Positions 1-19,288 of a stretch of 19,288 bases of DNA are shown here, piece by piece; position 1 is the stretch's first letter, and each line of letters begins with the position of its first letter. Below the pieces are notes generated by a model. That model was not told the DNA's origin. It searched no databases and was given only the letters and a program-made list of their open reading frames with translations. The stretch lies in UHGV virus genome UHGV-1843802, one strand, 5' to 3'. The DNA is from a virus. Made by a program: the position numbers and the translations under genes.

Positions 1-260
1 ATCGCAGGCATACCATCAAGTTCTGCCTGTCTGCGAAGCAGCGCCCATACCCGACGATAACCATACGTGGGCAGCTCTCCGATAACATGGTGTATACGGA
101 GAAGCACATCCGTATCATCTGAGTGACGGCTGCGGCGACCATCTTTCCAGTCATCGGTTCGTCTGAGAATTACGTGCAACTGCGCACGCGACACCCGGAG
201 ACAACGGCTGACTAAGCTTACTCCCCATCCCCGGGCAATAAGGGCGCGTGCGCTATCCAC
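1..260 (-). CDS. insD: IS2 transposase OrfB (InsD), N-terminal part only; truncated by the window edge; normally made as an OrfAB fusion by -1 frameshift
   Basis: The reverse complement of 1-260 translates from a GTG at 260 as [32 protein letters not shown]...[27 protein letters not shown], matching recalled InsD. The frame is open to the window edge. Confidence 0.8.
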
Positions 261-583
261 TTTTTTGCACGCCCGTATTCAACGGCTTCTTTAAGGAGTT
301 CATTTTCCATCGTTTTTTTGCCGAGCAGGCGCTGGAGTTCTTTAATCTGCTTCATGGCAGCAGCAAGTTCAGAGGCAGGAACGATCTGCTCTCCTGCGGC
401 CACAGCAGTAAGACTTCCCTCCTGGTATTGCTTGCGCCAGAGAAATAACTGGCTGGCTGCCACACCGTGTTGCCGGGCAACAAGGGAGACCGTCATTCCC
501 GGTTCAAAACTCTGCTGAACAATAGCGATCTTTTCCTGTGTAGTACGCCGTCTGCGTTTCTCCGGTCCTAAGACATCAATCAT
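218..583 (-). CDS. insC: IS2 transposase OrfA (InsC), helix-turn-helix DNA-binding subunit
   Basis: The ATG at 583 (rc of 581-583) gives a 121-aa protein, [24 protein letters not shown]...[18 protein letters not shown], matching recalled InsC. The ORF track begins further upstream at a non-ATG codon, which I do not accept. Confidence 0.9.
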
Positions 584-674
584 CTGCTCTCCAATGACTA
601 GTCTAAAAACTAGTATTAAGACTATCACTTATTTAAGTGATATTGGTTGTCTGGAGATTCATGGGGCCAGTCTA

Positions 675-1296
675 ACTTGACTCCTAGTTGTTCTGTAGGT
701 TTATATGCCAATGAATAGTGCTTACTCTTGTCTCTGGACATTCTAAATAATGGGTTATATGTCCATTTTTCTTCTACGCCATCTGTAATAACATAAACAT
801 CCAGGCTAGAGACTTCTTTTGTTAACTCTCTGGAAAGCAACAATGTCAGAAATAAAGTTTCCTTCTCAATATCAAATGTAACGCTAACAGCTTCATGCTG
901 TTTAGTTTCTACGCCAGAAACAGTTCCTCCAGCAGGAATTACAACACTGTTAATAATTGCCAAAGGTGTTTGGTCATTGGCAAGCAATTCAGCCCCGGCT
1001 GGTAACGTAATATCCCGATCAGTTTTATTGGTTATAGACGTTGTTCCGTATGAAGCACTAACAAATCGCCCTACGTAGCTACGGTCTTCAGCAACCGCTA
1101 AAATACTTGAGCGGCGCGTAGCCGTTGAAATAAGTCCCTCAGTGAGGCCGCGGCTTGCAAATGTACGGGCAATATAAATAAGCTGTGATCCGAATATAGC
1201 GTGCATCTGCACAAACTGACTATTTACAAATCGTGACCACCATGTGTTTTCATTTAACTTGGCATTAAATTTGTCCAGTAATTCTGTAATCGTCAC
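675..1296 (-). pseudogene. Phage virion gene (baseplate-like, function not established) truncated at its 3' end by the IS2 insertion
   Basis: The ORF (ATG at 1296, overlapping the upstream stop in an ATGA arrangement) runs straight into the IS2 terminal repeat at 674. The last 16 codons of the track ORF ([16 protein letters not shown]) are encoded by IS2 DNA, so the native C-terminus is missing. Position after the tape-measure-like gene suggests a baseplate component. Confidence 0.6.
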
Positions 1297-1667
1297 GCGC
1301 CCACCCCACTTGATTTCTGCATAACAATATCCATGCTCCCACCTTTCGCATAAAAACTAATTAATAAAGAATCTTCAGAAATTGATGTGCAACGAATCCC
1401 CTGCACATCCAAACCTGGCAAATCTTGTCGTAGTTTTTTCATCATTCTCCCTTCAATAGCCACTTCAACTATGTGCGAAGTTTCAGAGCCGAATGGTTCA
1501 TGCTTAAATTCTTCCATTGGATTCCCCCAAGAGGGTAAACCATAAACACTCCCTTCAGGGGTTCGTAACCACTCGTCAAGTCGGGCCATCCATGCTGCGG
1601 TACTTCCTTCTGCAATAATGACACCGCTCTCATTCGTTTGAAGTCTTGCGTCTATTTCATAAAGCAT
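1293..1667 (-). CDS. Hypothetical phage virion protein, 124 aa (possibly a small baseplate component by position)
   Basis: ATG at 1667 with a GAGGA ribosome-binding site about 10 nt upstream on the minus strand. It starts 6 nt after the tape-measure stop and overlaps the next gene by 4 nt, indicating an operon. No motif I can assign. Confidence 0.5.
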   Translation of the reverse strand: MLYEIDARLQTNESGVIIAEGSTAAWMARLDEWLRTPEGSVYGLPSWGNPMEEFKHEPFGSETSHIVEVAIEGRMMKKLRQDLPGLDVQGIRCTSISEDSLLISFYAKGGSMDIVMQKSSGVGA

Positions 1668-1672
1668 CTGTA

Positions 1673-4600
1673 TTAATCCTCAAGCAGAGCATCCAGCGAC
1701 GGGTCATTAATAGTTGTGCTAGCACGTGGTCGCGGTTGCGGCTGCGATGTTTTGACAACCTTATCCGGATCGCCTTTTGTATTGTTCTTGTTCACATTCA
1801 GAAGATCGTTCAGGATAGAGCAGATGTTATCCAGCGCCTTCAACATAGCAGGATCGTTATTTATAGTGTCAGTAGTTAATGGTTGTCTTATTCCGCTTCG
1901 TGCGAGATCTGTTACAGTAGGAAGCTGTGGTGGCAAAGCAAGAAAAGGTTCTTGCACGGCTGACGCAGAGCCAAATATGGCATTATTGGCTTCGTTTGAT
2001 ATACCTCTAATGCTATCTGCGGTTTGTTGAATACCATTATTCAGCCAACTACCGGCGCTCCTGGTAAGCGGGCTAATAGCCCTGGCAATTGTTGAGTTCT
2101 GCCCAGTAGCCTGATAAACCAAATCATTAACAATGCCTGTGCCATCTACCCCACCAATAAGTTGTGAAACGTTATCGCCAATTGCAGGTAACACAGCAGA
2201 GCTAATACGTTTCAGACCTGTTAATGACGAGTCAAACAAAGAGCCAAGCACCCCCTTATCTTCACCATCAATTACCTTGTATCCATTGTCATAAACTGGA
2301 ATCCCCCTTGAGTTTACAGAGATTTTTTCACTCTCTCTTGCCGAAGAAACACCGGAGAGAAGATCCACTGAAGGCATATCGCGTTCAGCTTTTGGTCTTT
2401 TTTGTAAAGCGTCTCTTATATCAGTTACCTGGCTTGCTTTTTGAAATCCAAAAGATTTACCGGTTAAGCTGGATATCTTTTCAGTAAGAGCCTGATCCAT
2501 TCCTTTCGCTTTTTCGGAAAGCGAAGATATAGAACCAAACGAAGTCGCCGACGCAAAATCCTTAATCAGGCCAAGGCTTGTACCAGCAAGGCTGGTAGCC
2601 GCACCTCCAAATAAATTACCTACCCCGCTGTCATTTATAGCGATTAATCTCTCAAGCAGACTTGATGGCGAGCCAGTATTAACATCTACATTCTCTGGAT
2701 TAATCGGTTGCGATTGATTGCCTGTTTTTTGTGGCTTTTTGACTGTCTGAGCATGTTGTGCAACCTCAATTGGCTGTTGTGTTGCTGTCGGAACGGCATC
2801 CAAAACTGGTTGAGCTGGAGATTTTCCATTAGCATATTTTACCTTGCGACCAACACTATATTGCGAATCGCGGGCAATTAGCTGACCACCATTTTCTTTC
2901 TGAATTTTATTAATCCGCGCCAATGTTTCGTCAGAGAATTGTCCCTCCCATCGACCAGTGTTTGTGTTAAATGCCCCAAGAGCATTCTTTATGAACTCAT
3001 TGTTAACCGCCGGGTTTCCACCTTCTTTCGTCGCTATTGCACGAACTAATTGCGTCATAACTTCTGGGTTGCTGACGTCTATTTTTTCATTAGGCGAGAC
3101 GCCAAGATATTTGCTGACGTTATCAATATATTGATTAGTATTGTTCTCCTTTGGGGGTGCCCATTTGGAAATAATACTGGATACCGTCTGTAGCTTCTGA
3201 TACCCAGCAGCGGCGCTGGTGCCGTTGTAATAGCTTGACACCTGGTTTGCCAGCGCCCTGATCCCTTCTTCAGGCGTGTTAAATCGCGCAAAACGTTGTT
3301 CACCTTTTGCATTTGGTGCTTCCAGCGTCGCCCCTTCCTGATTAGCGAAAACAAGGTTGCCGAGGTTATTATTCCGGTAATTGCGGTTTTTAGCGTTGCT
3401 GCCACCAATATTCAGATCCGCTGCAATGGTGTTGCTGGTAGGGGCATTAAATTCAGCCGGGGAAGTATACCCGTGCTCACCAACACCATCTTCACCATCA
3501 CGCCCGCCTTGTAGCTGCTCACCTAAAGAATGAATCGCATCGACAGTTTTTTTGGTGCCGTCTTCAACAGCTTTTTTTACTTGTTTTGTGTTTTCGTCAG
3601 TGGATAAAAATGTATCCTTAAGGCTACCAAAAACAGATTTGGTGATATCTACCGCGCCGTTAACACCACGAGCAATATCTCCGGTATCAAAATTCTGAAG
3701 TTTTTCACCTGCTCTTTCAAATCCTAGCGCAGAAATTCCTTTCCCTATCAAGTTTGTTGCGCCCGACACCAAGCCCCCCATATCGAGCACATTAGCTGTT
3801 GCGTAAGCCGTTTTTTGCTGTTCGGATACAGCATCATCGTCACTTAAACCAAAGGCTGCCTTTTGCGCCTCTGTATCTGTGTAACCATCTATGGCGTCAT
3901 ATCCAGCCATTGCCAGCGAACCGATGATAGGGACCGCTCTTGCCGCTGTGGATGCTGCTGATTTAACTCCTATTTTTTCAGCACTTTTGAGGGCTACAGA
4001 TTCAGTTTTTTTCTTTGCAATGGCTTCGCCGGTTTTAATGGTGGCATCTTCAGCCACAACACCAGCTGACTTCACGGCCTTAGCAGTATTTTTTGTTTCC
4101 TTTGCAATCCCCTTTGATGTATCGCTGATAGTGCTTACATCTTTGGGTTTGCTGATCTTATTTTTAACTACTTTTGCTGCTCCGACACCAGTGCCAGCTG
4201 CAGCACTACCGGCAGCAACTTTTTCGCCAACGGAGAGTGCTTTTTTCCCAAGATTGCGGCCTTTCCTTTTCGATTTATTCCGTTTATTTTTTCCCGTTTG
4301 ATCACCAATATTGATTTTATTTCTTCTGCTTGCTCGATTTTTCCAGAGATCACTTAAGCCGAACTTATTTCCAGAAGACACTGATTTCCGAAGCTTAACT
4401 ATCTCGTCAGAAACATTTTCCAGACCATCAATTATTTTGTTGTCATTGGTCTGAAGGATTTTGGTTTGCTCTTCTACTGCTTGTGCGGATTTTGTCTCAA
4501 CAGCGTTATTAAACGCTTTTGCAGATGTTGCTTTTTGAGAATTCACCGCCGCCGGATAAGTAATTACTGGTGATATTGCTTTCGAGGTTGATGTTTCTTT

Positions 4601-5455
4601 TTTCCCCTTTTCTACCCATTCTTTAAGAGATTCTGCTTTACCTGTGATCTCTTTAGTTATGTCGTACATGCCACGAGCCGCCATCCATAACGGCCCACCA
4701 GCACCGACACCAGCTGCATTTGTTAAAGACTCTTCACTGGAAGACTGATTGCCATCTACCCCCATAATGGAACCTAGCTTTCTGAGAAAGCCAGCTTGTA
4801 ATTTTGCGTCGGCTTTACATGCGTTCTGCAGTTCTTTTTTTCTGGCTACATCCTCATTGCTTTTCTGGGATACAAAACGTCCATTACTATCCCGCAGCGG
4901 GCCTTTTAGACTTTGGGGGGGTTGTGGTTCAAGAGGGGCTGAATTAGCAGCTACCGGTATAAAACCTTCTGATTTTCGGATGGTCTGACGTGATTGCACG
5001 GAGCGAACACTTTCTGGTGTGTTCGTTGCAACGATAGCGCGGTCCACGGTTTGGTTTATCGGTGCCCTTTCCTTTTTAGCAGGGAGACGTTTTTTATATG
5101 GGTTAGTTTGGACATCTCTAACGCTATCAGATGTACTTTGCTCGTAGTCTTTACGCCTGCGTGATAGTCTGTTGCTAACTCTGCCTTGCCTTTCGTCCTG
5201 TTGAGTTATGGTGCTTGCCCCAGAAAGAATGGCGTCTTTTACCTCAGCAAGAGCTTTTAGTTCGTTTGTGCTCGCCTCCTGAATAGCGTCAATTATTGCG
5301 ATACGGTCTTTATTCTCTTTCAAAATAACCTCTCTTTTACCAGCGCGATCAACGTTTCCCGGCTTGAGCTTTGTATTTTTCTTCCAGGGCTTTTGACATA
5401 TGGAGTGCTCGCCATTGCGGTAATTGTTCAACGTCGCTAACGGGCTGATATCCAT
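1673..5455 (-). CDS. Tail tape-measure-like protein, 1260 aa
   Basis: Uninterrupted 3.8-kb ORF with tape-measure composition: long Ala/Gly/Lys/Ser-rich helical low-complexity stretches and hydrophobic Gly-rich segments (AVPIIGSLAMAGYDAIDGY, GGLVSGATNLIGKGISALG). It lies between tail and baseplate-like genes. ATG at 5455; no clear ribosome-binding site, lying 14 nt after the upstream stop. Confidence 0.65.
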   Translation of the reverse strand: MDISPLATLNNYRNGEHSICQKPWKKNTKLKPGNVDRAGKREVILKENKDRIAIIDAIQEASTNELKALAEVKDAILSGASTITQQDERQGRVSNRLSRRRKDYEQSTSDSVRDVQTNPYKKRLPAKKERAPINQTVDRAIVATNTPESVRSVQSRQTIRKSEGFIPVAANSAPLEPQPPQSLKGPLRDSNGRFVSQKSNEDVARKKELQNACKADAKLQAGFLRKLGSIMGVDGNQSSSEESLTNAAGVGAGGPLWMAARGMYDITKEITGKAESLKEWVEKGKKETSTSKAISPVITYPAAVNSQKATSAKAFNNAVETKSAQAVEEQTKILQTNDNKIIDGLENVSDEIVKLRKSVSSGNKFGLSDLWKNRASRRNKINIGDQTGKNKRNKSKRKGRNLGKKALSVGEKVAAGSAAAGTGVGAAKVVKNKISKPKDVSTISDTSKGIAKETKNTAKAVKSAGVVAEDATIKTGEAIAKKKTESVALKSAEKIGVKSAASTAARAVPIIGSLAMAGYDAIDGYTDTEAQKAAFGLSDDDAVSEQQKTAYATANVLDMGGLVSGATNLIGKGISALGFERAGEKLQNFDTGDIARGVNGAVDITKSVFGSLKDTFLSTDENTKQVKKAVEDGTKKTVDAIHSLGEQLQGGRDGEDGVGEHGYTSPAEFNAPTSNTIAADLNIGGSNAKNRNYRNNNLGNLVFANQEGATLEAPNAKGEQRFARFNTPEEGIRALANQVSSYYNGTSAAAGYQKLQTVSSIISKWAPPKENNTNQYIDNVSKYLGVSPNEKIDVSNPEVMTQLVRAIATKEGGNPAVNNEFIKNALGAFNTNTGRWEGQFSDETLARINKIQKENGGQLIARDSQYSVGRKVKYANGKSPAQPVLDAVPTATQQPIEVAQHAQTVKKPQKTGNQSQPINPENVDVNTGSPSSLLERLIAINDSGVGNLFGGAATSLAGTSLGLIKDFASATSFGSISSLSEKAKGMDQALTEKISSLTGKSFGFQKASQVTDIRDALQKRPKAERDMPSVDLLSGVSSARESEKISVNSRGIPVYDNGYKVIDGEDKGVLGSLFDSSLTGLKRISSAVLPAIGDNVSQLIGGVDGTGIVNDLVYQATGQNSTIARAISPLTRSAGSWLNNGIQQTADSIRGISNEANNAIFGSASAVQEPFLALPPQLPTVTDLARSGIRQPLTTDTINNDPAMLKALDNICSILNDLLNVNKNNTKGDPDKVVKTSQPQPRPRASTTINDPSLDALLED

Positions 5456-5469
5456 ATAGAGTCAGGTTG

Positions 5470-6291
5470 TTAATAATGGTTAGCCATCCATTCAGATCTA
5501 ATTGATGGGATAAACTCTCTATTGAGAAAGGGGACGTACAGTGTGGTTGTCACATCTGCACCCTCCTTAGCGTTTTTGCAATGTTGCGGAGGCAGGATCA
5601 GTCGGCTTGAGCCTCTCTCAATAGACATTTTCAGGCCGTGGCGTAGGTCTTTTTGCATAAGCTGTATGCGAGCCACAAGCGGTGTAAACTCGGTTTCAAG
5701 CGCCATGCTTTCAATAATGTCAAAGCGTCGGTTAGCGGCCTGCGTGAAGTCCTCCGGATCGTCTTCAAGCGCCGTGCATAAAGCGAGTTCAGCAATCCGC
5801 ATCCGTGCCACGCCAGCACTGTATTCGGGGCTTTTCATATCAGGAAGTGACGCTCGCATTCGTTCAAGGAGTTCCGCGCCTTTCCCGGTTAATGGTTTAA
5901 GTATCCAGTCAGTTGGTACTCCATTTACTGGTACGTTGGTTTTCACGTAAGGAGGTACAGTGAGTATTTCTACTGTTTGGGCCAGGTCGCTCAGGTTAAT
6001 ATCTGCATGATGCGTATTACCGCAGTGACTGCACTCATAGGAGTAGGTCATTACTGCATCGGGGCGCGAATTAACAAATATCCACCAAAGAGCAGTTCTG
6101 CGATCCTGAACTGTCCAGTTAGCACTGTCGTTAATTTCACCATCCTGCATAGAGTTAAGGTACTCTGTAGTAGTTGCCTCATCTTCTGCCGGGTTCAGGT
6201 CAGAATATTTCAGCGCATCCTTCACGGTAGGGGCGTGGAACTGAATTTCTGTCTCAGGACGGGAAGGCAATGGGAATTTTGGAATGTTCAA
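5470..6291 (-). CDS. Hypothetical phage protein, 273 aa, with a Cys/His cluster (YECSHCGNTHH); first gene of the operon that contains the tape-measure-like gene
   Basis: TTG start at 6291 preceded by a strong ribosome-binding site (GGAGG, 5-nt spacer) on the minus strand; the next in-frame Met is 47 codons downstream. Function unknown. Confidence 0.5.
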   Translation of the reverse strand: MNIPKFPLPSRPETEIQFHAPTVKDALKYSDLNPAEDEATTTEYLNSMQDGEINDSANWTVQDRRTALWWIFVNSRPDAVMTYSYECSHCGNTHHADINLSDLAQTVEILTVPPYVKTNVPVNGVPTDWILKPLTGKGAELLERMRASLPDMKSPEYSAGVARMRIAELALCTALEDDPEDFTQAANRRFDIIESMALETEFTPLVARIQLMQKDLRHGLKMSIERGSSRLILPPQHCKNAKEGADVTTTLYVPFLNREFIPSIRSEWMANHY

Positions 6292-6395
6292 TTATTCCTC
6301 CGAAAAGCAGGTATCTGTTCATTTTCCAGAGGATAGGGAGTGTGTGATTTGCGATGGGGATTGAATGAAGATCTTTGCCGGTCGAGAAGCGATTA

Positions 6396-6537
6396 TTGAG
6401 GGTGATTTTTACACCTTAAGTGACGCTACTCACATATCCACAGAGTATTTTTATAAACCTTTTTCCATTTTTAATCCTTTTTAGATCCTTTTTAGGCGTC
6501 GCTGGAGCCAGTAGTGGCGCGGGCTGTAGAGGAGGCT
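6396..6537 (+). promoter_or_regulatory. Replication origin core: one inverted iteron, a DnaA-box-like 9-mer, and an AT-rich region likely to be the unwinding element
   Basis: Inverted iteron TTGAGGGTGATTTTTACACC at 6396-6415. ATATCCACA at 6434-6442 matches the DnaA box TTATCCACA at 8 of 9 positions. The AT-rich stretch 6445-6500 (tttttataaacctttttccatttttaatcctttttagatcctttttagg) contains repeated CCTTTTT motifs and a GATC. Confidence 0.6.
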
Positions 6538-6658
6538 GGTGTAAGAATTGCCCTCAATTAAATACGATCGGTGTAATATTTGCCCTCAAAAGGTGTAAGA
6601 TTTGCCCTCAAAAGGTGTAGTAATTGCCCTCAAAGTGATGTAAAAATTGCCCTCACCA
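6538..6658 (+). repeat. Five direct iterons (about 20 bp, mostly 22-bp spacing) immediately upstream of the initiator gene
   Basis: GGTGTAAGAATTGCCCTCAA (6538-6557), GGTGTAATATTTGCCCTCAA (6570-6589), GGTGTAAGATTTGCCCTCAA (6592-6611), GGTGTAGTAATTGCCCTCAA (6614-6633), and a degenerate GTGATGTAAAAATTGCCCTCAC (about 6635-6658). Consensus GGTGTAAnAATTGCCCTCAA. Confidence 0.85.
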
Positions 6659-6679
6659 TTCGAAGGATCACACAGGGTT

Positions 6680-7435
6680 ATGAACAGAGCGGAATTAACA
6701 GCAAAAGCCGTCAGCCTGATTGAGTCAGCGACACCTATTAGTCGTAGTTTGGCACAAGCCAATGAGATCACGGAGGCTGCTTATCACCTGACTCGCGACC
6801 AAAAGCGACTGTTGTTTATTGTGGTGGGAAGACTTCGCTATGCTTCTAAGGATGGCGTTCTTGGTTCAGGTGCCTGTGAGTTGACGGTCAACGAATATGC
6901 AGAGATGTATAATTTGCCCTCTGCTGAAGCCAGCAAGGATATTCGTAAGGCCATTTCAGGGCTTAGCGAGAAGAAAGTTACGATATATAACCCTGATGAA
7001 TCGACCGAATCAGAAGACAGTTATGAGTCTTATCCTTGGATGATTAAGGATGCCTATTCACCACGGCGCGGGACTTACATTATTCATCTTAATCCATATC
7101 TCATGCCGTTTTTTACTCTGCTTGATAAGAGATTCACAAGGCTGAATTTTACCGAAGTATCTCGCCTTACAAATCCTTATTCTATGCGGCTTTATGAGTC
7201 CTTATGCCAGTACAGGAAGGATGATGGAAGCGGCTTTGCCATACTTGGCGTCGAATGGATGCGGGAGCGTTATGGGTTACCAAAAAGCTATCAGCGGTAT
7301 GCCGAATTTAAGAGAAGTTTTTTAACGAAGGCTGTAGCAGAGATTGAAAAAAATACAAAAATGAAAATAGTCTTCTCAGAGGTGACGGAAGGCGGCAAAG
7401 TTACCAGGATAAAATTTACTTATCAGCAGTCTTAA
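6680..7435 (+). CDS. repE: Iteron-binding replication initiator, 251 aa, resembling F-plasmid RepE (RepFIA)
   Basis: ATG at 6680; the track's upstream TTG at 6647 lies inside the fifth iteron. Motifs shared with recalled F RepE: EAAYHLTRDQKRLLF, SAEASKDIRKA, YESYPWMIKDAYSPRRGTYIIHLNPYLMPFF, NPYSMRLYESLCQYRKDDGSG. Same length as RepE and flanked by iterons on both sides. Confidence 0.85.
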   Translation: MNRAELTAKAVSLIESATPISRSLAQANEITEAAYHLTRDQKRLLFIVVGRLRYASKDGVLGSGACELTVNEYAEMYNLPSAEASKDIRKAISGLSEKKVTIYNPDESTESEDSYESYPWMIKDAYSPRRGTYIIHLNPYLMPFFTLLDKRFTRLNFTEVSRLTNPYSMRLYESLCQYRKDDGSGFAILGVEWMRERYGLPKSYQRYAEFKRSFLTKAVAEIEKNTKMKIVFSEVTEGGKVTRIKFTYQQS

Positions 7436-7770
7436 GGGCAATTTTTACACCCTTCTCAAGGTGTAGAATTTGCCCTTAACGATCGGCAATTGAGGGCAAT
7501 TTTTACATCTTAATTGCATGTATCTTGTTATTAGCAAGTTGTGTTTTTATATAACGTATTGATATGTAAGGGATTATGTAAAAATCACCCTCAACCAATA
7601 TCGTGCGTATCGTGCATTCTTATTGCGCTTTTTTATTATCATTCACTGTGTTAACTGATTGATATTATTGAAATGTGTAAAGAATGCCTTCATTACAGAT
7701 GAATTGATGATGTAAAAAATGCCCTCAAAATTGCGCTACCTTCCCTACCCGCTATCGTTGAGGGCGTGGG
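7436..7770. repeat. Downstream iteron cluster in mixed orientations (copy-number control locus, analogous to incC), in AT-rich non-coding DNA
   Basis: GGGCAATTTTTACACC (inverted, about 7436-7451), GGTGTAGAATTTGCCCTTAA (7460-7479), TTGAGGGCAATTTTTACATC (inverted, 7490-7509), GTAAAAATCACCCTCAA (about 7578-7594), a degenerate TGTAAAGAATGCCTTCA (about 7676-7692), GATGTAAAAAATGCCCTCAA (about 7708-7727), and a half site GTTGAGGGCG (about 7757-7766). No ORF of any length. Confidence 0.75.
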
Positions 7771-7817
7771 TGCTGACGGGAAATGAGCAACCCTCCAGCA
7801 CACATAATTAAAGCTAT

Positions 7818-8525
7818 TCAGAATTTGATCACTCCACTGATAGCCCCCTTTAACGCACTTGTAGCCATGCCAGCGGCACCGTTGACCAAAGCAGAAACAC
7901 CTGAGCCTGCGGATGTGTATTTCTGGAAAGTGATTGGGTATGACAAGAACTCTGACACCTGATCACGTGAGCGAGTGATTTCCCCAAGTTGTGTAGGAAA
8001 TACGCGCATTTCTTCTTCCAGTTCTTTTCCGCCGTCCTGAGTCACCCGGTAGACACGGATTTTCATCAGATATTCAGGAGGAAGGTTTATTGTTCCATCA
8101 GGGTTTGTTACACGAGAACGACGCTCTTTGAACCAGTCCATGATCTTGCCATCTTCGGTATCCCTCACGGTCATAGTGACCGGTCCGGCGCTAACATAGG
8201 TTGGCTTGCTGAATTCTACGCTGCCGATCACCTTGCTTTCTGTCTCGATGTTCCCACTGCTGTAGGTGATATCCTTCACGAACATATCGAAGCCGTTCAG
8301 ACCATCCACTTCAACGGTCCACTGCCACCCCTGGGCGTAACGGATACGCATAGCAGCAGCAACAATATTTTTCCCGTAGGCAATATCGCTACTGTAATTC
8401 CCGCTTACCCCGCCGCCTGATATGGCTTTATCAAGAATGTCGCTAATGAGGTTGCTGGTGAATGATTTCGTGTTAAATGACAATGCGGTGGTCAACGTTC
8501 TACCAACGCTGCTGAAAATACTCAC
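7818..8525 (-). CDS. Hypothetical phage virion or tail protein, 235 aa
   Basis: GTG start at 8525 with a GGAGG ribosome-binding site 7 nt upstream on the minus strand. Last gene of the tail block before the replicon. No assignable motif. Confidence 0.5.
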   Translation of the reverse strand: MSIFSSVGRTLTTALSFNTKSFTSNLISDILDKAISGGGVSGNYSSDIAYGKNIVAAAMRIRYAQGWQWTVEVDGLNGFDMFVKDITYSSGNIETESKVIGSVEFSKPTYVSAGPVTMTVRDTEDGKIMDWFKERRSRVTNPDGTINLPPEYLMKIRVYRVTQDGGKELEEEMRVFPTQLGEITRSRDQVSEFLSYPITFQKYTSAGSGVSALVNGAAGMATSALKGAISGVIKF

Positions 8526-8540
8526 TCTGCGCCTCCAGCG

Positions 8541-9092
8541 TTAAAAAATGGTAGCCCCCGGAATAATGGCCCGGTTTGAGGACATTTTTTCCTCAATTTC
8601 CTGCACGCGGGCATATAGCGTGGCTTCATCGGGCAGATCGGAGTAGTCAAATTTCCCGTCGATGGACGCTCTACGCTGCCTGGCGACATTTCTTACGTTG
8701 ATAAGCGCCTCCAGATATTCCTCCAGCATTCCAATGATTGCAGGAGGCACTTGCCATTCATCCAGCTTTCTGTCGCGTAGATTAACCAGATACAGCATTC
8801 GAAAAGGCCAGCGTTCTGAACCTGTTAGCTCTAATTCAATAAATCCGGATAATTCATCCGAATAGACCAACAAGCCGTTGTTGTCGGTAACATGAACCAG
8901 AGAGAGATAATCTTCTGGCAACGGGATTGCAGTACCACCAGCTCTTTCAAGTTTTAACGTTTTCACTACCCCTGCCCTGTCCTGATACGTGGTCAGAGCT
9001 TTGATCAGGAAGGCTTTCAACGTTTCTTCTTCACGCACAAGTAGTGGATTAAATCGCTCTTTAACGCTTTCTAATAATTCAATTGGTGTCAT
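8541..9092 (-). CDS. Hypothetical phage virion or tail protein, 183 aa
   Basis: ATG at 9092. Tightly packed in the minus-strand operon, 15 nt upstream of the next gene. Confidence 0.5.
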   Translation of the reverse strand: MTPIELLESVKERFNPLLVREEETLKAFLIKALTTYQDRAGVVKTLKLERAGGTAIPLPEDYLSLVHVTDNNGLLVYSDELSGFIELELTGSERWPFRMLYLVNLRDRKLDEWQVPPAIIGMLEEYLEALINVRNVARQRRASIDGKFDYSDLPDEATLYARVQEIEEKMSSNRAIIPGATIF

Positions 9093-9146
9093 CGTTGCCT
9101 ACAACTCAATAACAAGGATGTTCCCGCCACAAGGGCGGGATAGGGA

Positions 9147-9638
9147 TTATTCCGCCCAGTTGTAAACAATGCGCAGGGAAGGTTTAACGACCGCCGTTAC
9201 GTCTTCGGATGAGAAGTCCACGGCGTCGGAATACACTTTGCAATGAGAATATGTGCGGATCAGACCTTTATGGTTACCGCTATTCGATTCAGCCGCCGCC
9301 TGTAAGGTAATTTCCAGATATTCTTTTCCGTATACCATCTGTTTTACAGCGGCGAGAACTGCGCCTTCGATAGTTTCCGCGCATGTGACCTGAAATTCAC
9401 CAGAGTTGCGTAATGGTCCGTGCTGGTTGAATTTCATGCCACCAGGGGCGTAATCCTCCACATCTTCGCGTGTCATTTCTGGTAACTGAGCTGTACGAAC
9501 TAGTACAGACAGATGTTCGTAACCCTTAATGGTCATCCAATATTCAGAACCAATAAGTTTTTCGCCTGCAGCCAGGTTTTTATTAAACCGGGATTTTAGA
9601 AAGGCCATATCGGCTTTTGTATTTGCAAAACCGGACAT
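9147..9638 (-). CDS. Hypothetical phage tail protein, 163 aa (size and position fit a tail tube protein; not verified)
   Basis: ATG at 9638 with a strong ribosome-binding site (AGGAG, about 7 nt spacer). Follows the sheath-like gene by three genes. Confidence 0.5.
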   Translation of the reverse strand: MSGFANTKADMAFLKSRFNKNLAAGEKLIGSEYWMTIKGYEHLSVLVRTAQLPEMTREDVEDYAPGGMKFNQHGPLRNSGEFQVTCAETIEGAVLAAVKQMVYGKEYLEITLQAAAESNSGNHKGLIRTYSHCKVYSDAVDFSSEDVTAVVKPSLRIVYNWAE

Positions 9639-9646
9639 AAATACTC

Positions 9647-10219
9647 CTACACAAAAACAGATGAGATATTGCTACGGTTGATCGATGTATTACCGCTGCA
9701 TTGCAGGGTTACCGTGTTATGAGTGAAATAGCCTTCCGGTGTGCGCGGGGCGTCCAGTTGGTAACTCACGCTTTTGATAACAACGTCGGTAAGGGCTATG
9801 TTCCTACCTATGTTTAACGTTACTGTCTCCGGGCGACGACCGAATGGCGCTACATTGTTCAGTTCCGGCGATTCCATCTTCAGCAATGCTGTAATGGCTG
9901 CGTTCACTTCAAGTTGCGCGTTCGTTGTCGCCATGAAATCAATTACCAGATTAAATTCAGGCGGTTGCTGACCTTCCCAAACAAGCATTGAGTTGAAGAG
10001 GGTTTTTGTTGTTACGCCGGTTGCGGTCTGAAGTGTATCTGCAAGAGAGCCAGCCGCAGCGCTAATACCGCCAAGTAAACCTCCTACTGACTGGTTTTCA
10101 AATGGTGATTGCCACATTGATGACAGTTCTGCGGTAGATCCTTCACCGATATAACCGACGACCATATCCTCTGAAGAGAGGATATAAACCTTCATTAACG
10201 GACTTATTCCGTCAGGCAT
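9647..10219 (-). CDS. Hypothetical phage virion protein, about 190 aa; start uncertain
   Basis: The ORF is open from a TTG at 10237. The first ATG is at 10219 and another at 10195; none has a convincing ribosome-binding site. The reading frame itself is clear and the stop is 9647-9649. Confidence 0.45.
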   Translation of the reverse strand: MPDGISPLMKVYILSSEDMVVGYIGEGSTAELSSMWQSPFENQSVGGLLGGISAAAGSLADTLQTATGVTTKTLFNSMLVWEGQQPPEFNLVIDFMATTNAQLEVNAAITALLKMESPELNNVAPFGRRPETVTLNIGRNIALTDVVIKSVSYQLDAPRTPEGYFTHNTVTLQCSGNTSINRSNISSVFV

Positions 10220-10286
10220 TATCGCGCCGCAAATCAAACGCTATTTCTCCCAGGTAGAGGCCACCTTTGCAGGCGGCCTATGTCAC

Positions 10287-11021
10287 TTACAAACCGCGTT
10301 TTTTGCGAATGCGCATTGATTTTTTGCGGTTGATATTCGCTACGGATGTATGTGCTTTGCGGCGTGCTTTTTTCAGCGCCTGTTTTTGCAATGACGTCAT
10401 GCGGCGAGGACGCGGGCGTTTACGGATGATGGTAACCTTGCCATCACGAACCACTTTTTTACGTACCGCTTCCAGCATTGCGCTATCACCACCAGCAACG
10501 GTGTAAATGGCAATAGCTGTTTCCATCATGTCGGTGTCGCTTTCGGAAAGAGCGTCATAAACACGTTCGGCAGCTGAGTCATCTTCATCGTCGATCATTT
10601 CGGTTACATCGTCCTGATCAGCGCCAAGCGCGACAGCTGCATCAGCAAGAGCTGCGAGAGCATCGTTATAAGCATCGATTTGCTCATCGGTGAAATCGGT
10701 GTCTTCATCGATATCAGCCAGGCCAGCCATAGTGATTGCTAATGCATCAAATGAGTCAGCCTCCGGATCACCATCTTCAACCCAACCAGCAAGCATGGAC
10801 GCTGCCAGGCTGCGCATATCACCTTGTGCACGGGATTCAACCGCTTCCATCATCGCGGTTTCAATGTCGTCTTTGGGCTTTGGTTGAGTGTCCTTTCCTT
10901 TCTGTCCTGCGCTTTCCAGCATGGCGTTATCATTATTGTCCTGCGTGGATTTATCACCGCTTTCAAAGCAGCCAGAACCGAAAATCGCACGCATAAAAGG
11001 ATCAGCAGTATAATTTTTCAT
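10287..11021 (-). CDS. Highly acidic protein with a strongly basic Arg/Lys-rich C-terminal tail, 244 aa; function unknown
   Basis: ATG at 11021 with a GGAGAGAGG ribosome-binding site about 8 nt upstream; the track's upstream GTG at 11042 is less likely. The N-terminal two-thirds are rich in Asp/Glu/Ala (DGDPEADSFDALAITMAGLADIDEDTDFTDEQIDAYNDALAALADAAVALGADQDDVTEMIDDEDDSAAE). The last 50 residues are basic (RKRPRPRRMTSLQKQALKKARRKAHTSVANINRKKSMRIRKKRGL). Confidence 0.55.
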   Translation of the reverse strand: MKNYTADPFMRAIFGSGCFESGDKSTQDNNDNAMLESAGQKGKDTQPKPKDDIETAMMEAVESRAQGDMRSLAASMLAGWVEDGDPEADSFDALAITMAGLADIDEDTDFTDEQIDAYNDALAALADAAVALGADQDDVTEMIDDEDDSAAERVYDALSESDTDMMETAIAIYTVAGGDSAMLEAVRKKVVRDGKVTIIRKRPRPRRMTSLQKQALKKARRKAHTSVANINRKKSMRIRKKRGL

Positions 11022-11065
11022 ATTCAAACCTCTCTCCCCCACATCATTTAGCGGGGGGTTATAAA

Positions 11066-12724
11066 TCAGCGCATCAGAATTGGCTTACCGACGATTCGGC
11101 GAGCTGTACCGGTCGGACAAACAGACCAGGACACTTCCCACAGATCGATGTCCTTTTGGACAACCTGAACAACATATGGATCTTCGCCCTGGGACTTGTC
11201 ACGTGGAGTAACCAGCGCACCGGCTGCAACGTAACGGTCAAGCAATTCAGTCATTGCTTTCATTAGCGTTTCTTTGGTAATGCCATCCGGTTCGTGCTTA
11301 ATCGCCTGAGCTACTTCATAGAAATCTCTGGCGATGGCGTTCATCAAGGAAGACACATGCTGGAATCGCAGATAGTTGTTTTTGCTGTAAGTTGTTAAAG
11401 AGTCGTCAATGTAAACGGACCCGTCAGCAGCAACTGAAACTGGATTAATGCGCGCAAGAACGAACGCTTCACGATCAACTGCACCGATATTTGGAATTCG
11501 GGCAATGTTCTGTCGATCAATAATCGCGCGTGATATACCTGCCGGTGCGTAATGCCAACCACCAACATCCGGTACCAGCGCTACCCCTTTTGCTTTTGCT
11601 ACGAATGCGTCGCAACTAATGCCATAGACGACATTCATCCCAGTGAAGGTATCTCGGCAGGAGAGCGGGAAGTAGTAACGGCTTGGTTGATGTGAGCCGC
11701 CAAAACTATGGCTTTTCGCTTCTGAAATAGCGTTTTCAGGTGTCTGGTTGCCCTTCAGGTCATAGAACATGTCTACGCGAACGTCTTCAGCCAGCTTTTT
11801 GATTGCGGCTAAGGCGGATGCGTCATAACAGCCCAGTGACAGCAATGCGGTGTAATTAACCTCTGAAGCTTCGAGAACCTTTAATGCTTCCAGATAGTCT
11901 TCAGTGTCAATTTCGGACAGATCTCCATCAGTACCACCTTCAAAAGCTACATCCTCAAAAATGAGTTGAGCAGCGGATGCTTCTGCATTATCTGCCAGCA
12001 CGGCACCAATGCGAGTGGACTGGCTTTCAAGCAGTGTCGGAATCCATGCTGGTTGGCCCATGTCGTTAGTGCCTTCTGGATTGAAAGACACTTGGTGGCT
12101 TTCCAGCACCTCAATGGACCCATCGGTTTGTTTTTCTTTCAGCGTCAGCGTAAAGAGTTCGCTTTCTTCATCATCGCGAGTTAGTGATAACGTGCGATTT
12201 TGAGATGCATCACCATCTTTGATGAAGAATAATGCCTTCTCTTCACCTTTAATCTGGGGCGTCTCTTTGGGTGTGAAGGACACTGATTGAGTCGTTGCAG
12301 TTGAAGCAACACCAACGCTTAATGTGTCACCTGGATTTACTGTGGTTTCAGTAGGTTCAACGGAAAGTTCTTTGCTCGCCTTTGCCGCTTTTGCTTTGCC
12401 CACAACGGAAACAGAAATACCCGGCACCTTCATGTCTTTAGCGCAAACTCGAACGACATATCCGGAGCCGCCTTTTACTGCACGCTCCACGTGGCGGTAT
12501 GGTTCAAATGCCGCTCCCAGACGAGGGTGAATCGGTGAACCTAATACGCTTTGATAAGTCGTATCGTCAACTTTCAGTACCTTACCCGGTGCGCCACGAC
12601 GCGATATTACAAGCCCAGCAAAGACGGATGCGCCACCGCTGGTATTGGTGAGGGTAGCGTCAGCATTTACTGACATTACAGCAACGCCAGCTGCCTGCCC
12701 TACCGAAAAACTAATCTTATTCAT
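11066..12724 (-). CDS. Putative contractile tail sheath protein, 552 aa
   Basis: ATG at 12724. Size and position (first gene after the capsid and decoration genes and an attenuator hairpin) fit a sheath. The C-terminal third (...GVALVPDVGGWHYAPAGISRAIIDRQNIARIPNIGAVDREAFVLARINPVSVAADGSVYIDDSLTTYSKNNYLRFQHVSSLMNAIARDFYEVAQAI...) has the spacing pattern I associate with sheath C-terminal domains such as P2 FI. Unverified. Confidence 0.5.
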   Translation of the reverse strand: MNKISFSVGQAAGVAVMSVNADATLTNTSGGASVFAGLVISRRGAPGKVLKVDDTTYQSVLGSPIHPRLGAAFEPYRHVERAVKGGSGYVVRVCAKDMKVPGISVSVVGKAKAAKASKELSVEPTETTVNPGDTLSVGVASTATTQSVSFTPKETPQIKGEEKALFFIKDGDASQNRTLSLTRDDEESELFTLTLKEKQTDGSIEVLESHQVSFNPEGTNDMGQPAWIPTLLESQSTRIGAVLADNAEASAAQLIFEDVAFEGGTDGDLSEIDTEDYLEALKVLEASEVNYTALLSLGCYDASALAAIKKLAEDVRVDMFYDLKGNQTPENAISEAKSHSFGGSHQPSRYYFPLSCRDTFTGMNVVYGISCDAFVAKAKGVALVPDVGGWHYAPAGISRAIIDRQNIARIPNIGAVDREAFVLARINPVSVAADGSVYIDDSLTTYSKNNYLRFQHVSSLMNAIARDFYEVAQAIKHEPDGITKETLMKAMTELLDRYVAAGALVTPRDKSQGEDPYVVQVVQKDIDLWEVSWSVCPTGTARRIVGKPILMR

Positions 12725-12761
12725 GCTGGTTCTTATCCTCTAAAGCGAGAGAACGAGGCAA

Positions 12762-12786
12762 GGCTACCCACGGTTAATGGGTAGCC
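12762..12786 (-). terminator. Perfect 9-bp GC-rich stem-loop just after the Ig-like gene stop; candidate attenuator or partial terminator
   Basis: GGCTACCCA (12762-12770), loop cggttaa, TGGGTAGCC (12778-12786). On the minus-strand RNA the stem is followed by UUGCCUCGUUCUCUCGCUUU, a pyrimidine and U-rich tract. Confidence 0.4.
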
Positions 12787-12791
12787 TCTGA

Positions 12792-13070
12792 TCAGGATTC
12801 GCTTACCGTGAAGTTGTCGCCTACGGTTACTTCTTTCGTAGTTGGTTCAACACTGACGGCGCTTACGCTTTTAGGTGCCTCCCTAACAGTGACCGTGCAC
12901 TGTGCGGTTTTATTGCCGTCATTAGTTTTGATTGTCAGCACTGCCTGCCCTGCCTTAAGAGCGGTACATGTAGTGCCATCAACCTGGACAATTTCAGGGT
13001 GATCGGACTCAACAGTGAAAGATTTGTCTGTTGCGTCAGATGGCGAGATAGTTACTTGAATGTTTGCCAT
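12792..13070 (-). CDS. Ig-like (Big_2-type) domain protein, 92 aa; likely capsid decoration or accessory virion protein
   Basis: ATG at 13070 with a GGAG ribosome-binding site 7 nt upstream. The alternating beta-strand pattern VTISPSDATDKSFTVESDHPEIVQVDGTTCTALKAGQAVLTIKTNDGNKTAQCTVTV is typical of bacterial Ig-like group 2 domains. Confidence 0.6.
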   Translation of the reverse strand: MANIQVTISPSDATDKSFTVESDHPEIVQVDGTTCTALKAGQAVLTIKTNDGNKTAQCTVTVREAPKSVSAVSVEPTTKEVTVGDNFTVSES

Positions 13071-13081
13071 TCTTTTCTCCT

Positions 13082-13110
13082 GAACACCCCTTATTCAGGG
13101 GCGTGTTTTT
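13082..13110. other. Stem-loop (about 9 bp with one bulge) followed by a T5 run on the plus strand; on the coding minus strand it is a stem-loop without a U tract
   Basis: GAACACCCC, loop ttattca, GGGGcGTGTT, then TTTTT at 13106-13110. Its geometry is that of an intrinsic terminator for plus-strand (antisense) transcription, or a stabilising or processing hairpin in the late mRNA. Confidence 0.35.
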
Positions 13111-13113
13111 GCC

Positions 13114-13218
13114 TTACTTCTGCTTTGTTTTTTTCTGTGCCTTTGAAGTGTTCGCGGCGATAGTTTCACCTTCATCTACGTCAAGTGACGTTGGTGATAC
13201 CGACACGTTCGCCACCAT
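13114..13218 (-). other. 34-codon ORF in the -1 frame, overlapping the capsid-like gene stop; candidate -1 frameshift extension of that protein
   Basis: The capsid-like gene ends ...GAA AAA AAG TGA. The heptamer A AAA AAG is the classic -1 slippery site. The -1 frame continues VMVANVSVSPTSLDVDEGETIAANTSKAQKKTKQK to a TAA at 13114-13116. Confidence 0.25.
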
Positions 13219-14915: not shown

Positions 14916-15073
14916 GGTTAAGCCCTAAATTCGGGCGCGGCGTGAAGGTTCTTTTGACGGGCTAACAATACCTACTTTGTGATTTAGTCAATAGGTTTAG
15001 TAAAATAAAATCTATTAACACGCATGTTGTTATGTGATTTAATTTTAGTTTTCTAACACAAAACATTAGAGTT

Positions 15074-15466
15074 ATGGCGTATCGAATCTTTGTTTCGTAT
15101 AAAAATGGCGCTAAGAGCCACTCTCTGAACACAACAAGTCGCTTTCTTGTTGAGGCGCAGTTGGCATCAATTCTTGCCGAAAGTGAGATACTCTCGCTCG
15201 CTGAACGGATCGTTATCCAGTTTTCTGGTAGAGATATACTCAATGTCCCCGCCCTCACCCCGGCATCCGAAGTTATGGAATCAATTAAATGGCCTGTATG
15301 CGGATGTCCTGCCAGGGTTGAAGAGCCGGTAACTGCAACGCTCTACATGCCGAAAGCTGTAAGAGATTGGCTTGCTATGGTTGGCAATGGGAAAGTCAGT
15401 GCTGGACTTCGCAAGTTAATTGAAATGGCAGATATTCCTGAGTTAAAAAATGCATGGCGACAATGA
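15074..15466 (+). CDS. Hypothetical protein, 130 aa, with a C-terminal ribbon-helix-helix-like DNA-binding motif; first gene of a two-gene accessory operon
   Basis: ATG at 15074 after a 158-bp AT-rich region divergent from the capsid operon. The C-terminal segment PVTATLYMPKAVRDWLAMVGNGKVSAGLRKLIEMA has the strand-helix-helix pattern of Arc/CopG-type RHH domains. The N-terminal 90 residues are unassigned. Confidence 0.55.
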   Translation: MAYRIFVSYKNGAKSHSLNTTSRFLVEAQLASILAESEILSLAERIVIQFSGRDILNVPALTPASEVMESIKWPVCGCPARVEEPVTATLYMPKAVRDWLAMVGNGKVSAGLRKLIEMADIPELKNAWRQ

Positions 15467-15482
15467 GTAAACAAGGGACAAA

Positions 15483-15941
15483 ATGAGTCACGTTAACCCA
15501 TCAAAAACACAATATCGCTTAATGCTGGCGATCGCGTCAGCTATACCAACCAGCCTGAATCCCCCGGCAGGCTATCCCGCTGTTGTTGATGATTGTTTTC
15601 AGTATTACGGAGAAGACATCCTGAGCCAGTCCAAAGCGCTCAAGCAGTTATGTAAGGCAGGTATTCTTCACTGTATCGGAGATCCGGACGATTTTGTTGT
15701 TATGCTGGCGGATCGTGACTCTTTTCTACTGTCCTGGAAAGCCGGTGCGCGCGAAGCACGTTTGGGGAATGGTATTGGTTACATAGACTATAGTGATTTT
15801 CCGCTGGCATTTGCTGGTGGATATATGCATTGGCATGAGCGAAATAGAGGCCGTCAGCGTCAGTATCGCTTGAGTGACTTTAACGTCTGTCACGGTTTCG
15901 AAGAAGCTGACAGCCAGGACATCTGGCTTCAGGAGCCTTGA
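15483..15941 (+). CDS. Hypothetical protein, 152 aa, unknown function; second gene of the accessory operon
   Basis: ATG at 15483 with an AAGGGA ribosome-binding site 4-5 nt upstream, 16 nt after the upstream stop. Its 3' end overlaps the convergent spanin-like gene by 13 bp. No recognisable motif. Confidence 0.55.
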   Translation: MSHVNPSKTQYRLMLAIASAIPTSLNPPAGYPAVVDDCFQYYGEDILSQSKALKQLCKAGILHCIGDPDDFVVMLADRDSFLLSWKAGAREARLGNGIGYIDYSDFPLAFAGGYMHWHERNRGRQRQYRLSDFNVCHGFEEADSQDIWLQEP

Positions 15942-16568: not shown

Positions 16569-16623
16569 TTTTGGTGTTAAACATGTACCAATTTACATCC
16601 TTTTGTGTGCCTAAGTGGTGTTT

Positions 16624-17714: not shown

Positions 17715-17799
17715 TCTTCACCTCCTGGTTATCCTCCTATTGTCATCACTTTGTTATTTCGTCATTCAAACTGAGAGTTAAATTTCGGAATATTTTTGT

Positions 17800-17953
17800 A
17801 TTCTCAATTCATTCTCAAATAAATCTCACTGTCAGACCATCATTCATTGGGTGATTAAGATATTCTCAAAATGAACTCAATAAGCGCTCTTTTTATCTCG
17901 TTTGGTGTGGATTTTTGGGTGCTTCTCTTTTAAAATTACATTTTGATTCTCAA
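17800..17953 (+). promoter_or_regulatory. parC-like centromere and promoter region: repeated ATTCTCAA motifs, three of them in tandem at 11-bp spacing, upstream of parM
   Basis: ATTCTCAA at 17800-17807, 17811-17818, 17862-17869 and 17946-17953; the degenerate AATCTCAC at 17822-17829 continues the 11-bp phase. R1 parC is built of 11-bp direct repeats bound by ParR. The region also serves as the divergent promoter region for the PAAR-like operon. Confidence 0.5.
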
Positions 17954-17979
17954 ATGTGTCTCAGAAGTGGAGCAAGAAG

Positions 17980-18936
17980 ATGCGCATTTTTATCGATGAT
18001 GGTTCAACCAATATCAAAATGCTGTGGGAGCACGACGGGGAAACTCGCACTCACATCAGCCCTAACAGCTTTAAGCGCGGATGGTCAGCAACATTTGGTG
18101 CTGGCAAGCCGTTTAACTATGTCATTGACGACGAAAAGTATTCGTATGATTTGATCTCGCCAGATGTTCTGCCGACGAATAACGTGGAATGGCAATACAG
18201 CCCGCTTAACGTCCTGGCTGTTCACCATGCCCTGCTGACAAGTGGCATTGAGCCGCAGGAAGTAGAAATTGTGGTCACGCTGCCTCTGGCGGAGTTTTAC
18301 GACGTCGACGCGCAATACAATCTCGATAACATCGAGCGCAAGAAAGCCAGCCTTATGCGCCCCGTCACGCTGAATAAAGGCAATGTGTTCACGATTAAGA
18401 AAGTTACGGTACGCCCGGAGTCTATTCCGGCAGGAATTGGCCTGTGCGACAATCTGAACCCTGCCCATTCTGTTCTTATCGTCGATTTGGGTGGAACTAC
18501 CCTTGATGTTTCAATGGTCGCCGGGCAAATGACGGCAGTTTCCCGTGTTTTTGGCGATTCGAATCTTGGTGTATCACTGGTCACCAGGGAAGTAAGGCAA
18601 GCACTTGCCAGAGCCAATACCGAAACGTCAAATTACAATGTCGATCAGCTCATTATTAACCGCCACGATGAAGATTATCTGAACGACAATATCAATGACC
18701 CATCAGCGATTGGTGATGTGAAAAAGGCCATTGCCGCAAGCATTGACCGTCTGCGTACCCGCGTTCTTGATGTGATTGGCGACTTTAAAGGATATACGCA
18801 TGTCATGGTGATCGGTGGTGGCGCACCGCTGGTGGCAGATGCAATTCGCGAGCAAGTTAATATTCGTGATGACCGTTTCTTCGTGGCGGATGACCCGCAA
18901 CTTGCTCTTGTTCATGGCCTGAAAGCAATCGGTTAA
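17980..18936 (+). CDS. parM: ParM, actin-like plasmid segregation ATPase (type II partition), 318 aa
   Basis: ATG at 17980 with a GGAG ribosome-binding site about 8 nt upstream; the track's GTG at 17956 is less likely. The N-terminus MRIFIDDGSTNIKMLW and the motifs HISPNSFKR, NVLAVHHALLTSG, ESIPAG, DLGGTTLDVS, GDSNLGVSLVT and GYTHVMVIGGGA match recalled R1 ParM (StbA). Confidence 0.9.
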   Translation: MRIFIDDGSTNIKMLWEHDGETRTHISPNSFKRGWSATFGAGKPFNYVIDDEKYSYDLISPDVLPTNNVEWQYSPLNVLAVHHALLTSGIEPQEVEIVVTLPLAEFYDVDAQYNLDNIERKKASLMRPVTLNKGNVFTIKKVTVRPESIPAGIGLCDNLNPAHSVLIVDLGGTTLDVSMVAGQMTAVSRVFGDSNLGVSLVTREVRQALARANTETSNYNVDQLIINRHDEDYLNDNINDPSAIGDVKKAIAASIDRLRTRVLDVIGDFKGYTHVMVIGGGAPLVADAIREQVNIRDDRFFVADDPQLALVHGLKAIG

Positions 18937-18949
18937 CGAGGTAATGTCC

Positions 18950-19288
18950 ATGTCTCAGGAACGTAAGAAAGTGATGATTTATCTTCGCCCAGAGGCTTAT
19001 GCCAATGAAAAGGCGGCGAGCGAGAAGATAAAAAAACATAGCGATATGGCAAGAACCGCATTGTTGGCAGGGCTTGCGCTGGGAGAAGTCGATAGCAGGC
19101 TTCCAGGATTACTGGCTTCCCTGCTGACCGAAGACAATAACCCGGAGCTGATCCGAAAAATGCTGGCATCCTTCCTGGAACTACCAGCTGCGGTTGAGGA
19201 GCGCCCTGCCTCCATTGAGCCAGTGAAGGAGCAAGTTGTTGCCAAAAGCGCGTCGGCGCGCAATCTGGCTGACTCTCTACCTGATTGA
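18950..19288 (+). CDS. parR: ParR-like centromere-binding adaptor, about 112 aa; complete, with its stop at the window end
   Basis: Located 8-14 nt after parM. The segment ARTALLAGLALGEVDSRLPGLLASLL resembles recalled R1 ParR (RAALTAGLALYRQDPRTPFLLCELL). ATG at 18950 (GAGG 9 nt upstream) is preferred over ATG at 18944. Confidence 0.7.
   Translation: MSQERKKVMIYLRPEAYANEKAASEKIKKHSDMARTALLAGLALGEVDSRLPGLLASLLTEDNNPELIRKMLASFLELPAAVEERPASIEPVKEQVVAKSASARNLADSLPD

Follow-up and report, generated by a model that had tools for sequence, protein, structure and literature searches.

An IS2 element interrupts bplA, the baseplate gene of a D6-like phage-plasmid, in the 19,288-nucleotide stretch of DNA analysed here (UHGV virus genome UHGV-1843802; hereafter the window). 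The analysis shows that IS2 is inserted, exactly where it lies and what the two partners are, and it shows that the genes next to the insertion are intact. The explanation that we consider probable is a simple copy-out-paste-in insertion of IS2 that knocks out BplA, which would leave a tail-less, non-infectious element still replicating and partitioning as a plasmid.

IS2 is a member of the IS3 family that transposes by a copy-out-paste-in route via a minicircle and makes 5-bp target duplications. Positions 1..674 of the window are the left (IRL) half of an IS2 isoform common in E. coli, lying on the minus strand and running off the window start. Read downward from 674 on that strand, the sequence TAGACTGGCCCCATGAATCTCCAGACAACCAATATCACTTAA corresponds to the left inverted repeat of IS2 except for a single substitution (C13A). 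The preliminary description of this DNA had placed the end of the IS2 terminal repeat at 674, inside an open reading frame, and this proved accurate, with the IRL tip at 674 and homology to phage D6 from 675. The 42-bp IRL (633..674, minus strand; TAGACTGGCCCCATGAATC..., beginning TAGACTGG) was compared with that of a complete chromosomal copy of the isoform (L009, 244-1574; IRL at 1533-1574), which is 1331 bp long, 99.7% identical and flanked on either side by the 5-bp duplication TACGG. The two repeats are alike at 41 of 42 positions; at IRL position 13 (window 662) the window has CCCCAT where the chromosomal copy has CCCCCT, and the same change is seen in both assemblies that carry the junction.

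The gene orfA (InsA/TnpA, 121 aa) occupies 218..583 on the minus strand with its true ATG start at 583, while the mechanically called frame runs upstream to a GTG at 628. Residues 16-136 of that 136-aa frame (218-628) match the NCBIfam model NF006928, 'IS2 repressor TnpA', at 274.7 bits (curated cut-off, 229 bits), and OrfA also matches Pfam HTH_Tnp_1 (2e-19). The first 88 codons of orfB lie in the -1 frame at 3..266 (minus strand), presumably entered at an A6G slippery site that is read from the sequence as AAAAAAG at 261-267, and are cut by the window start. They match profile positions 1-86 of 301 of NF006918, 'IS2 transposase TnpB' (E = 2e-54), the DDE catalytic part lying beyond the window. 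Many E. coli genomes and chromosomes contain IS copies that share 99.7% identity with these 674 nucleotides; most E. coli IS2 copies match them at 95-99%, and the match is at least 99% in 972 of 7440 records. Per E. coli genome, the number of places matching the segment has a median of 3 and reaches 41. Relative to the IS2 of E. coli described by Lewis et al. (PMC3299598), from which the lengths of IRL and IRR were taken, the IRL, OrfA, the OrfB N-terminus and the A6G frameshift site all match; the window copy differs in being an isoform with C13A in its IRL, of which half is present.

It had also been remarked that IS2 can provide an outward promoter. This is inapplicable to the end in view, which is the IRL with its inward promoter PIRL, and no plus-strand promoter-like site was found at or near 674. 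From the Pjunc geometry (PMC3299598), the outward -35 would be expected in the IRR, outside the window.

The open reading frame at 625..1296 on the minus strand is bplA truncated by fusion to IS2, as established by translation, tblastn and PHROG 1369. It joins codons 1-207 of 476 (675-1296) to 16 codons and a stop that come from IS2 (625-674), and translation confirmed both the codon count and the coordinates first given. The resulting 223-aa stub retains 207 residues of D6 BplA at 99.5% identity; tblastn with D6 BplA covers residues 1-208 (99.5%), and the truncated frame aligns with positions 4-207 of the 489 in the profile of PHROG 1369 'baseplate protein'. An intact BplA reading frame is absent from the window, residues 1-207 of 476 being all that is left in frame. 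Loss of the native C-terminus had thus been recognized in kind but underestimated in scale, since 269 of the 476 residues (57%) are displaced and not the C-terminal tip alone. Comparison with intact relatives, proposed at the outset as a check, found an uninterrupted 1431-bp bplA in them, so the gene is split here.

IS2 entered between bplA codons 207 and 208 and is oriented as the late operon pmgB-sit-pmgA-bplA-16-R-S-U. At the insertion point D6 reads CCAAACTTGACTCC, in the wider context ...CACCAAACTTGACTCC..., from which the expected target duplication is ACTTG, the five bases that adjoin the IS tip at 675..679. A simple insertion would have duplicated ACTTG, and its far junction would be expected to read ...CACCAAACTTG|TGGATTTGCCCC, with ACTTG on both sides. 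The predicted second junction CACCAAACTTG|TGGATTTGCC had no matches in JGI metagenome or viral contigs.

The window begins inside IS2, and the other IS end and the 3' part of bplA lie outside it, so that the window by itself is compatible with either a simple insertion or an IS2-bounded deletion. Short-read assemblies normally break inside repeats such as IS2. The left end of the window falls inside orfB and has the appearance of a contig broken within a repeat; at the right end, positions 19286-19288 are the stop codon of a parR/StbB-like gene, as if the sequence had been cut at a gene boundary. IS2 might instead mark the edge of a larger rearrangement, namely an adjacent deletion, an inversion or a cointegrate between two IS2 copies, by which the 3' half of bplA and possibly 16, R, S, U and the lysis and dar genes were removed or relocated. 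The position of the other IS end outside both assemblies would suit such an event, the several IS2-matching places in an E. coli genome offer recombination partners, and in the D6-like plasmid pSO21_75 IS26 stands in place of ~15 kb that included bplA (PMC6799933). Nonetheless, nothing in the window requires a rearrangement, a contig that ends inside IS2 is normal for short-read assembly, and the pristine state of all other genes fits a single recent event. We regard a rearrangement as unlikely and a simple insertion with ACTTG duplication as the probable event.

The interrupted gene was assigned through its intact D6 counterpart, which is annotated 'baseplate protein, similar to P1 gene bplA' (1431 bp, 476 aa) and is flanked in D6 by pmgA, sit and pmgB upstream and by gene 16, R, S and U downstream. 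Intact D6 BplA matches PHROG 1369 'baseplate protein' (2e-196) and PHROG 219 'baseplate wedge subunit' (1.5e-20), and residues 9-475 match the chain 'BplA' of PDB entries 9ay5 and 9vzk (6e-112). With a P1-type BplA it shares 39% identity from end to end; a Pfam Gp6-like_1st match stays below threshold (16 bits against a cut-off of 27). Judged from these similarities, the gene is the D6 homologue of P1 bplA and in its intact form encodes a T4 gp6-like baseplate wedge protein. The original proposal that a baseplate-like structural gene is interrupted is upheld by the D6 annotation and the PHROG and PDB matches, as is its placement in one operon with the tape-measure-like gene, bplA lying in a single minus-strand run with pmgA and sit.

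What the loss of BplA would mean can be gauged from P1. P1 BplA has been detected in virions and assigned as the T4 gp6 orthologue (PMC9024508), and P1 bplA scored as essential when the whole genome was screened by CRISPRi, the efficiency of plating being <2.9e-5 (PMC10695390). In the P1 baseplate, two BplA subunits and one gp16 form the conserved wedge triplex, according to a cryo-EM preprint, and the residues that make contacts in the triplex, Tyr328, Gln292 and Asn366 among them, are located past position 207 (bioRxiv 10.1101/2025.07.21.665459). Given virion presence, CRISPRi essentiality and contacts beyond residue 207, a 207-residue BplA stub is very unlikely to be functional. By the same analogy, to a virion protein that is CRISPRi-essential and a member of the conserved triplex, the element by itself very probably cannot produce infectious particles. 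This essentiality evidence comes from P1, whose BplA is ~39% identical, and from CRISPRi, which is polar within operons.

The element could still be infectious if bplA were dispensable in D6-like phages or if BplA were supplied in trans by a co-resident relative. The P1 bplA result can reflect polarity (PMC10695390), no direct knockout of D6 bplA exists, and co-occurring D6-like haplotypes are hinted at below. Against this, contractile injection systems have a conserved core triplex that includes the gp6-like wedge protein, and P1 virions contain this protein (PMC9024508; bioRxiv 10.1101/2025.07.21.665459). Additionally, D6-type bplA is contiguous in 73 of the 74 PLSDB records that contain it, and the 74th is split only by the record origin. 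We consider retained infectivity barely credible, and loss of infectivity remains the outcome we expect from a knockout of BplA.

Outside the insertion, the D6-like backbone is preserved. From 674/675 to 19288 the window forms a single unbroken colinear alignment with D6 and with D6-like plasmids of E. coli and Salmonella, and over these 18.6 kb it is 99.0% identical to phage D6 and 99.1% to CP088384. By tblastn, 21 of the 22 D6 genes in the block are full length and gapless at 97.9-100% protein identity, the exception being bplA; RepA, PmgC, BplB, gp21, orf50, orf54 and orf55 are 100% identical to D6. Four single-base indels separate the window from D6, every one of them between genes. Next to bplA on the minus strand lie intact homologues of pmgA (1293..1667, 124 aa; 99.2% to D6 PmgA, full length), which in P1 encodes a T4 gp25-like baseplate protein (PMC9024508), and of sit (1673..5455, 1260 aa; 98.5% to D6 Sit, full length; PHROG 7182), a tape measure and injection transglycosylase that is likewise called the tape measure in P1 (PMC9024508). 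These are followed by pmgB (5470..6291, minus strand, 273 aa; 99.3% to D6 PmgB). The remaining virion genes, tub, pmgC, bplB, pmgG, 21, 22 (sheath), an Ig-like gene, 23 (major capsid protein), upfB and upfC, are intact and lie mostly on the minus strand between 7818 and 17714, together with small ORFs of which orf52 and orf53 are on the plus strand; all are full-length and gapless at 97.9-100% to D6. The visible part amounts to 18.6 kb of a ~90-kb element, to which an ENA contig described below contributes ~1.6 kb more. In D6 and most D6-like plasmids glnS (glutaminyl-tRNA synthetase) follows the ParA-like gene; two JGI metagenome contigs (L011, L016) have no glnS downstream of the position of the window end, and the ENA contig ends roughly at the expected glnS start.

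The replicon and the partition system are intact, as had been claimed from the first reading, with RepA 100% identical to D6, iterons present and ParM and ParR full length. The replicon occupies 6395..7732 on the plus strand, with repA (Rep3/RepB family) at 6680-7435; Pfam Rep3_N and Rep3_C were found on the RepA of the ENA copy. Five tandem 22-bp iterons (GGTGTAA.A.TTGCCCTCAA) at 6537-6660 abut the repA start, and further copies in both orientations, making up iteron families D1-D4 with them, lie upstream (6395-6415) and downstream (7432-7732). This layout is P1-like and consistent with an origin and a copy-control array. The partition module (17797..19288, plus strand) comprises parM/stbA (17980-18936) and the parR/StbB-like gene (18944-19288), whose products are 99.4% and 99.1% identical to the D6 proteins; Pfam StbA_N/ParM_N and Plasmid_stab_B matches were obtained on identical proteins elsewhere. 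Four ATTCTCA-containing repeats at 17797-17963, between upfC and parM, are a candidate parC-type centromere for ParM/ParR. Three other D6-like contigs (L021, L025, L027), otherwise 97-99% identical, do not align across the repA region (window 6348-7790) and encode there a different 286-aa protein with only a faint Rep3_N match, which indicates replicon-module swapping within the D6-like family.

The junction between bplA and IS2 is not an assembly accident, since it coincides with the very tip of the IS and recurs unchanged on an independent contig. The exact 223-aa chimeric protein is recorded once, on the ENA metagenome contig ERZ27229820:k119_36796 (L004), a 20,358-bp MEGAHIT assembly that ends 132 nt into IS2 and carries the identical junction. 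Over window positions 543-11296, 28 of 10,754 positions differ between the two, so the contig is distinct from the window; 543 to 2079 are identical, and the differences cluster at 2687-2750, 5683-5716, 7815-7872 and 8667-8724. For most of the 28 sites both alleles are present in other D6-like elements, and the differences look like recombination with co-occurring relatives or strain-mosaic assembly, not new mutation. An exact-protein look-up of the window Sit returned no record, the ENA contig differing from the window within sit, and that of the capsid protein returned complete relatives only, not the ENA contig.

Elsewhere the allele was not encountered. The IS2::bplA junction was found in none of the PLSDB plasmids (0/74 complete plasmids with the gene), complete E. 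coli genomes or the phage collection. Exact-pattern junction scans of viral, GTDB genome and JGI metagenome collections gave nothing or chance matches only, the latter in Vibrio, Chloroflexota, a cyanobacterium and an unrelated phage. A protein search with the missing C-terminal 269 residues of BplA returned only relatives of at most 55% identity (best, Xenorhabdus) and none of D6 type; D6-like proteins are plentiful in the same collection by exact look-up, so this absence does not amount to rarity. NZ_CP027382.1 (36 kb) was considered as a precedent for a truncated derivative and rejected as a linear, error-rich partial assembly in which bplA is intact.

These data are short-read or metagenome assemblies, and the population sampled might also harbour an intact copy. 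In that case the insertion could be short-lived or confined to a minority of a mixed population, or could reflect the path that the assembly took through variant strains, the dominant element being an intact, infectious D6-like phage-plasmid. The sole other instance is a MEGAHIT metagenome contig, the 28 differences fall in D6-like haplotype patches that point to co-occurring strains or recombination, and the complete plasmids with bplA lack the insertion. Yet a junction exactly at the IS tip and identical in two assemblies makes the insertion itself real, and an allele twice assembled into ~20-kb contigs should be reasonably abundant. The chance that the dominant element is intact is in our estimate very slim. 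A related scenario is hinted at by two assemblies that share an identical junction yet differ in haplotype patches of other D6-like elements. The IS2::bplA element might circulate as a tail-less D6 derivative alongside intact D6-like phages, recombining with them and occasionally being packaged and tailed in trans, as a helper-dependent phage-plasmid at the first step of conversion to a plasmid; we give this only a small chance.

We return to the simple knockout of BplA as the probable explanation, under which events would have run as follows. A D6-like phage-plasmid of the P1 family, already resident, would have received by transposition an IS2 isoform common in E. coli, which landed after codon 207 of the 476-codon bplA in the orientation of the late operon. 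The predicted product is the 223-aa stub (207 native and 16 IS residues), devoid of the C-terminal 269 residues, and 16, R, S and U, the tail genes downstream, would likely be expressed at a lower level owing to the 1.3-kb insert. Lacking a working baseplate or tail, the element would yield no infectious virions, while its untouched RepA-iteron replicon and ParM/ParR system would allow vertical inheritance as a low-copy plasmid.

The element was initially described as a defective phage that persists as a plasmid, in the course of becoming a plain plasmid. Non-infectivity, the first part of that view, is very probable in light of the P1 bplA evidence, whereas persistence as a plasmid had been assumed. 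The course toward a plain plasmid is speculation and has nothing in its favour beyond this one insertion: plasmid formation by decay would entail the loss of several phage functions, and here a single gene is disrupted while 21 others are intact at 97.9-100%. Since these 21 genes are full length and free of gaps when compared with D6, a working phage, the insertion has the look of one recent event and not of progressive decay.

Several known systems place the element more precisely. Phage D6 (NC_050154 / MF356679), pF16EC0589-1 (CP088384) and pYU39_89 (CP011430) are colinear with window 675-19288, share the gene order bplA, pmgA, sit, pmgB, repA, tub ... 22, 23 ... parM, parR, and have the same RepA (100%) and the same partition genes; their bplA is an uninterrupted 1431 bp, whereas that of the window is split by IS2 after codon 207. 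The incomplete D6-like prophage pSO21_75 (CP032497) of Salmonella Typhimurium ST213 resembles the window in having lost bplA in association with an IS while the plasmid was kept, and a regional clone of Salmonella carries it in fixed form (PMC6799933). There, IS26 replaces the ~15 kb that held baseplate, tail tube, tail fibre, lysis and antirestriction genes; in the window the IS is IS2 and the split of the gene alone is demonstrable. The P1-like plasmids derived from phage-plasmids (Pfeifer and Rocha 2024, PMC10879196) followed the same route that was first proposed for this element, losing phage functions and keeping replicon and partition, but in them many phage genes are gone and oriT/mob and resistance genes have often been gained, as opposed to one disrupted gene and no acquired cargo in the window.

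Both the conversion of P1-like phage-plasmids to plasmids by gene loss (PMC10879196) and the IS-associated loss of the same region in a D6-like element (PMC6799933) are already published. IS2::bplA adds one more case in which an IS has inactivated a morphogenesis gene in a phage-plasmid of the P1 family, an ordinary type of event that is documented for D6-like elements and, on a large scale, for P1-like ones, and that raises no new question. Its practical value lies mainly in annotation, where the appropriate label is a D6-like phage-plasmid whose bplA is disrupted by IS2 and which is probably non-infectious. That probable non-infectivity bears on whether the cargo of such an element would spread by infection or be passed on vertically only.
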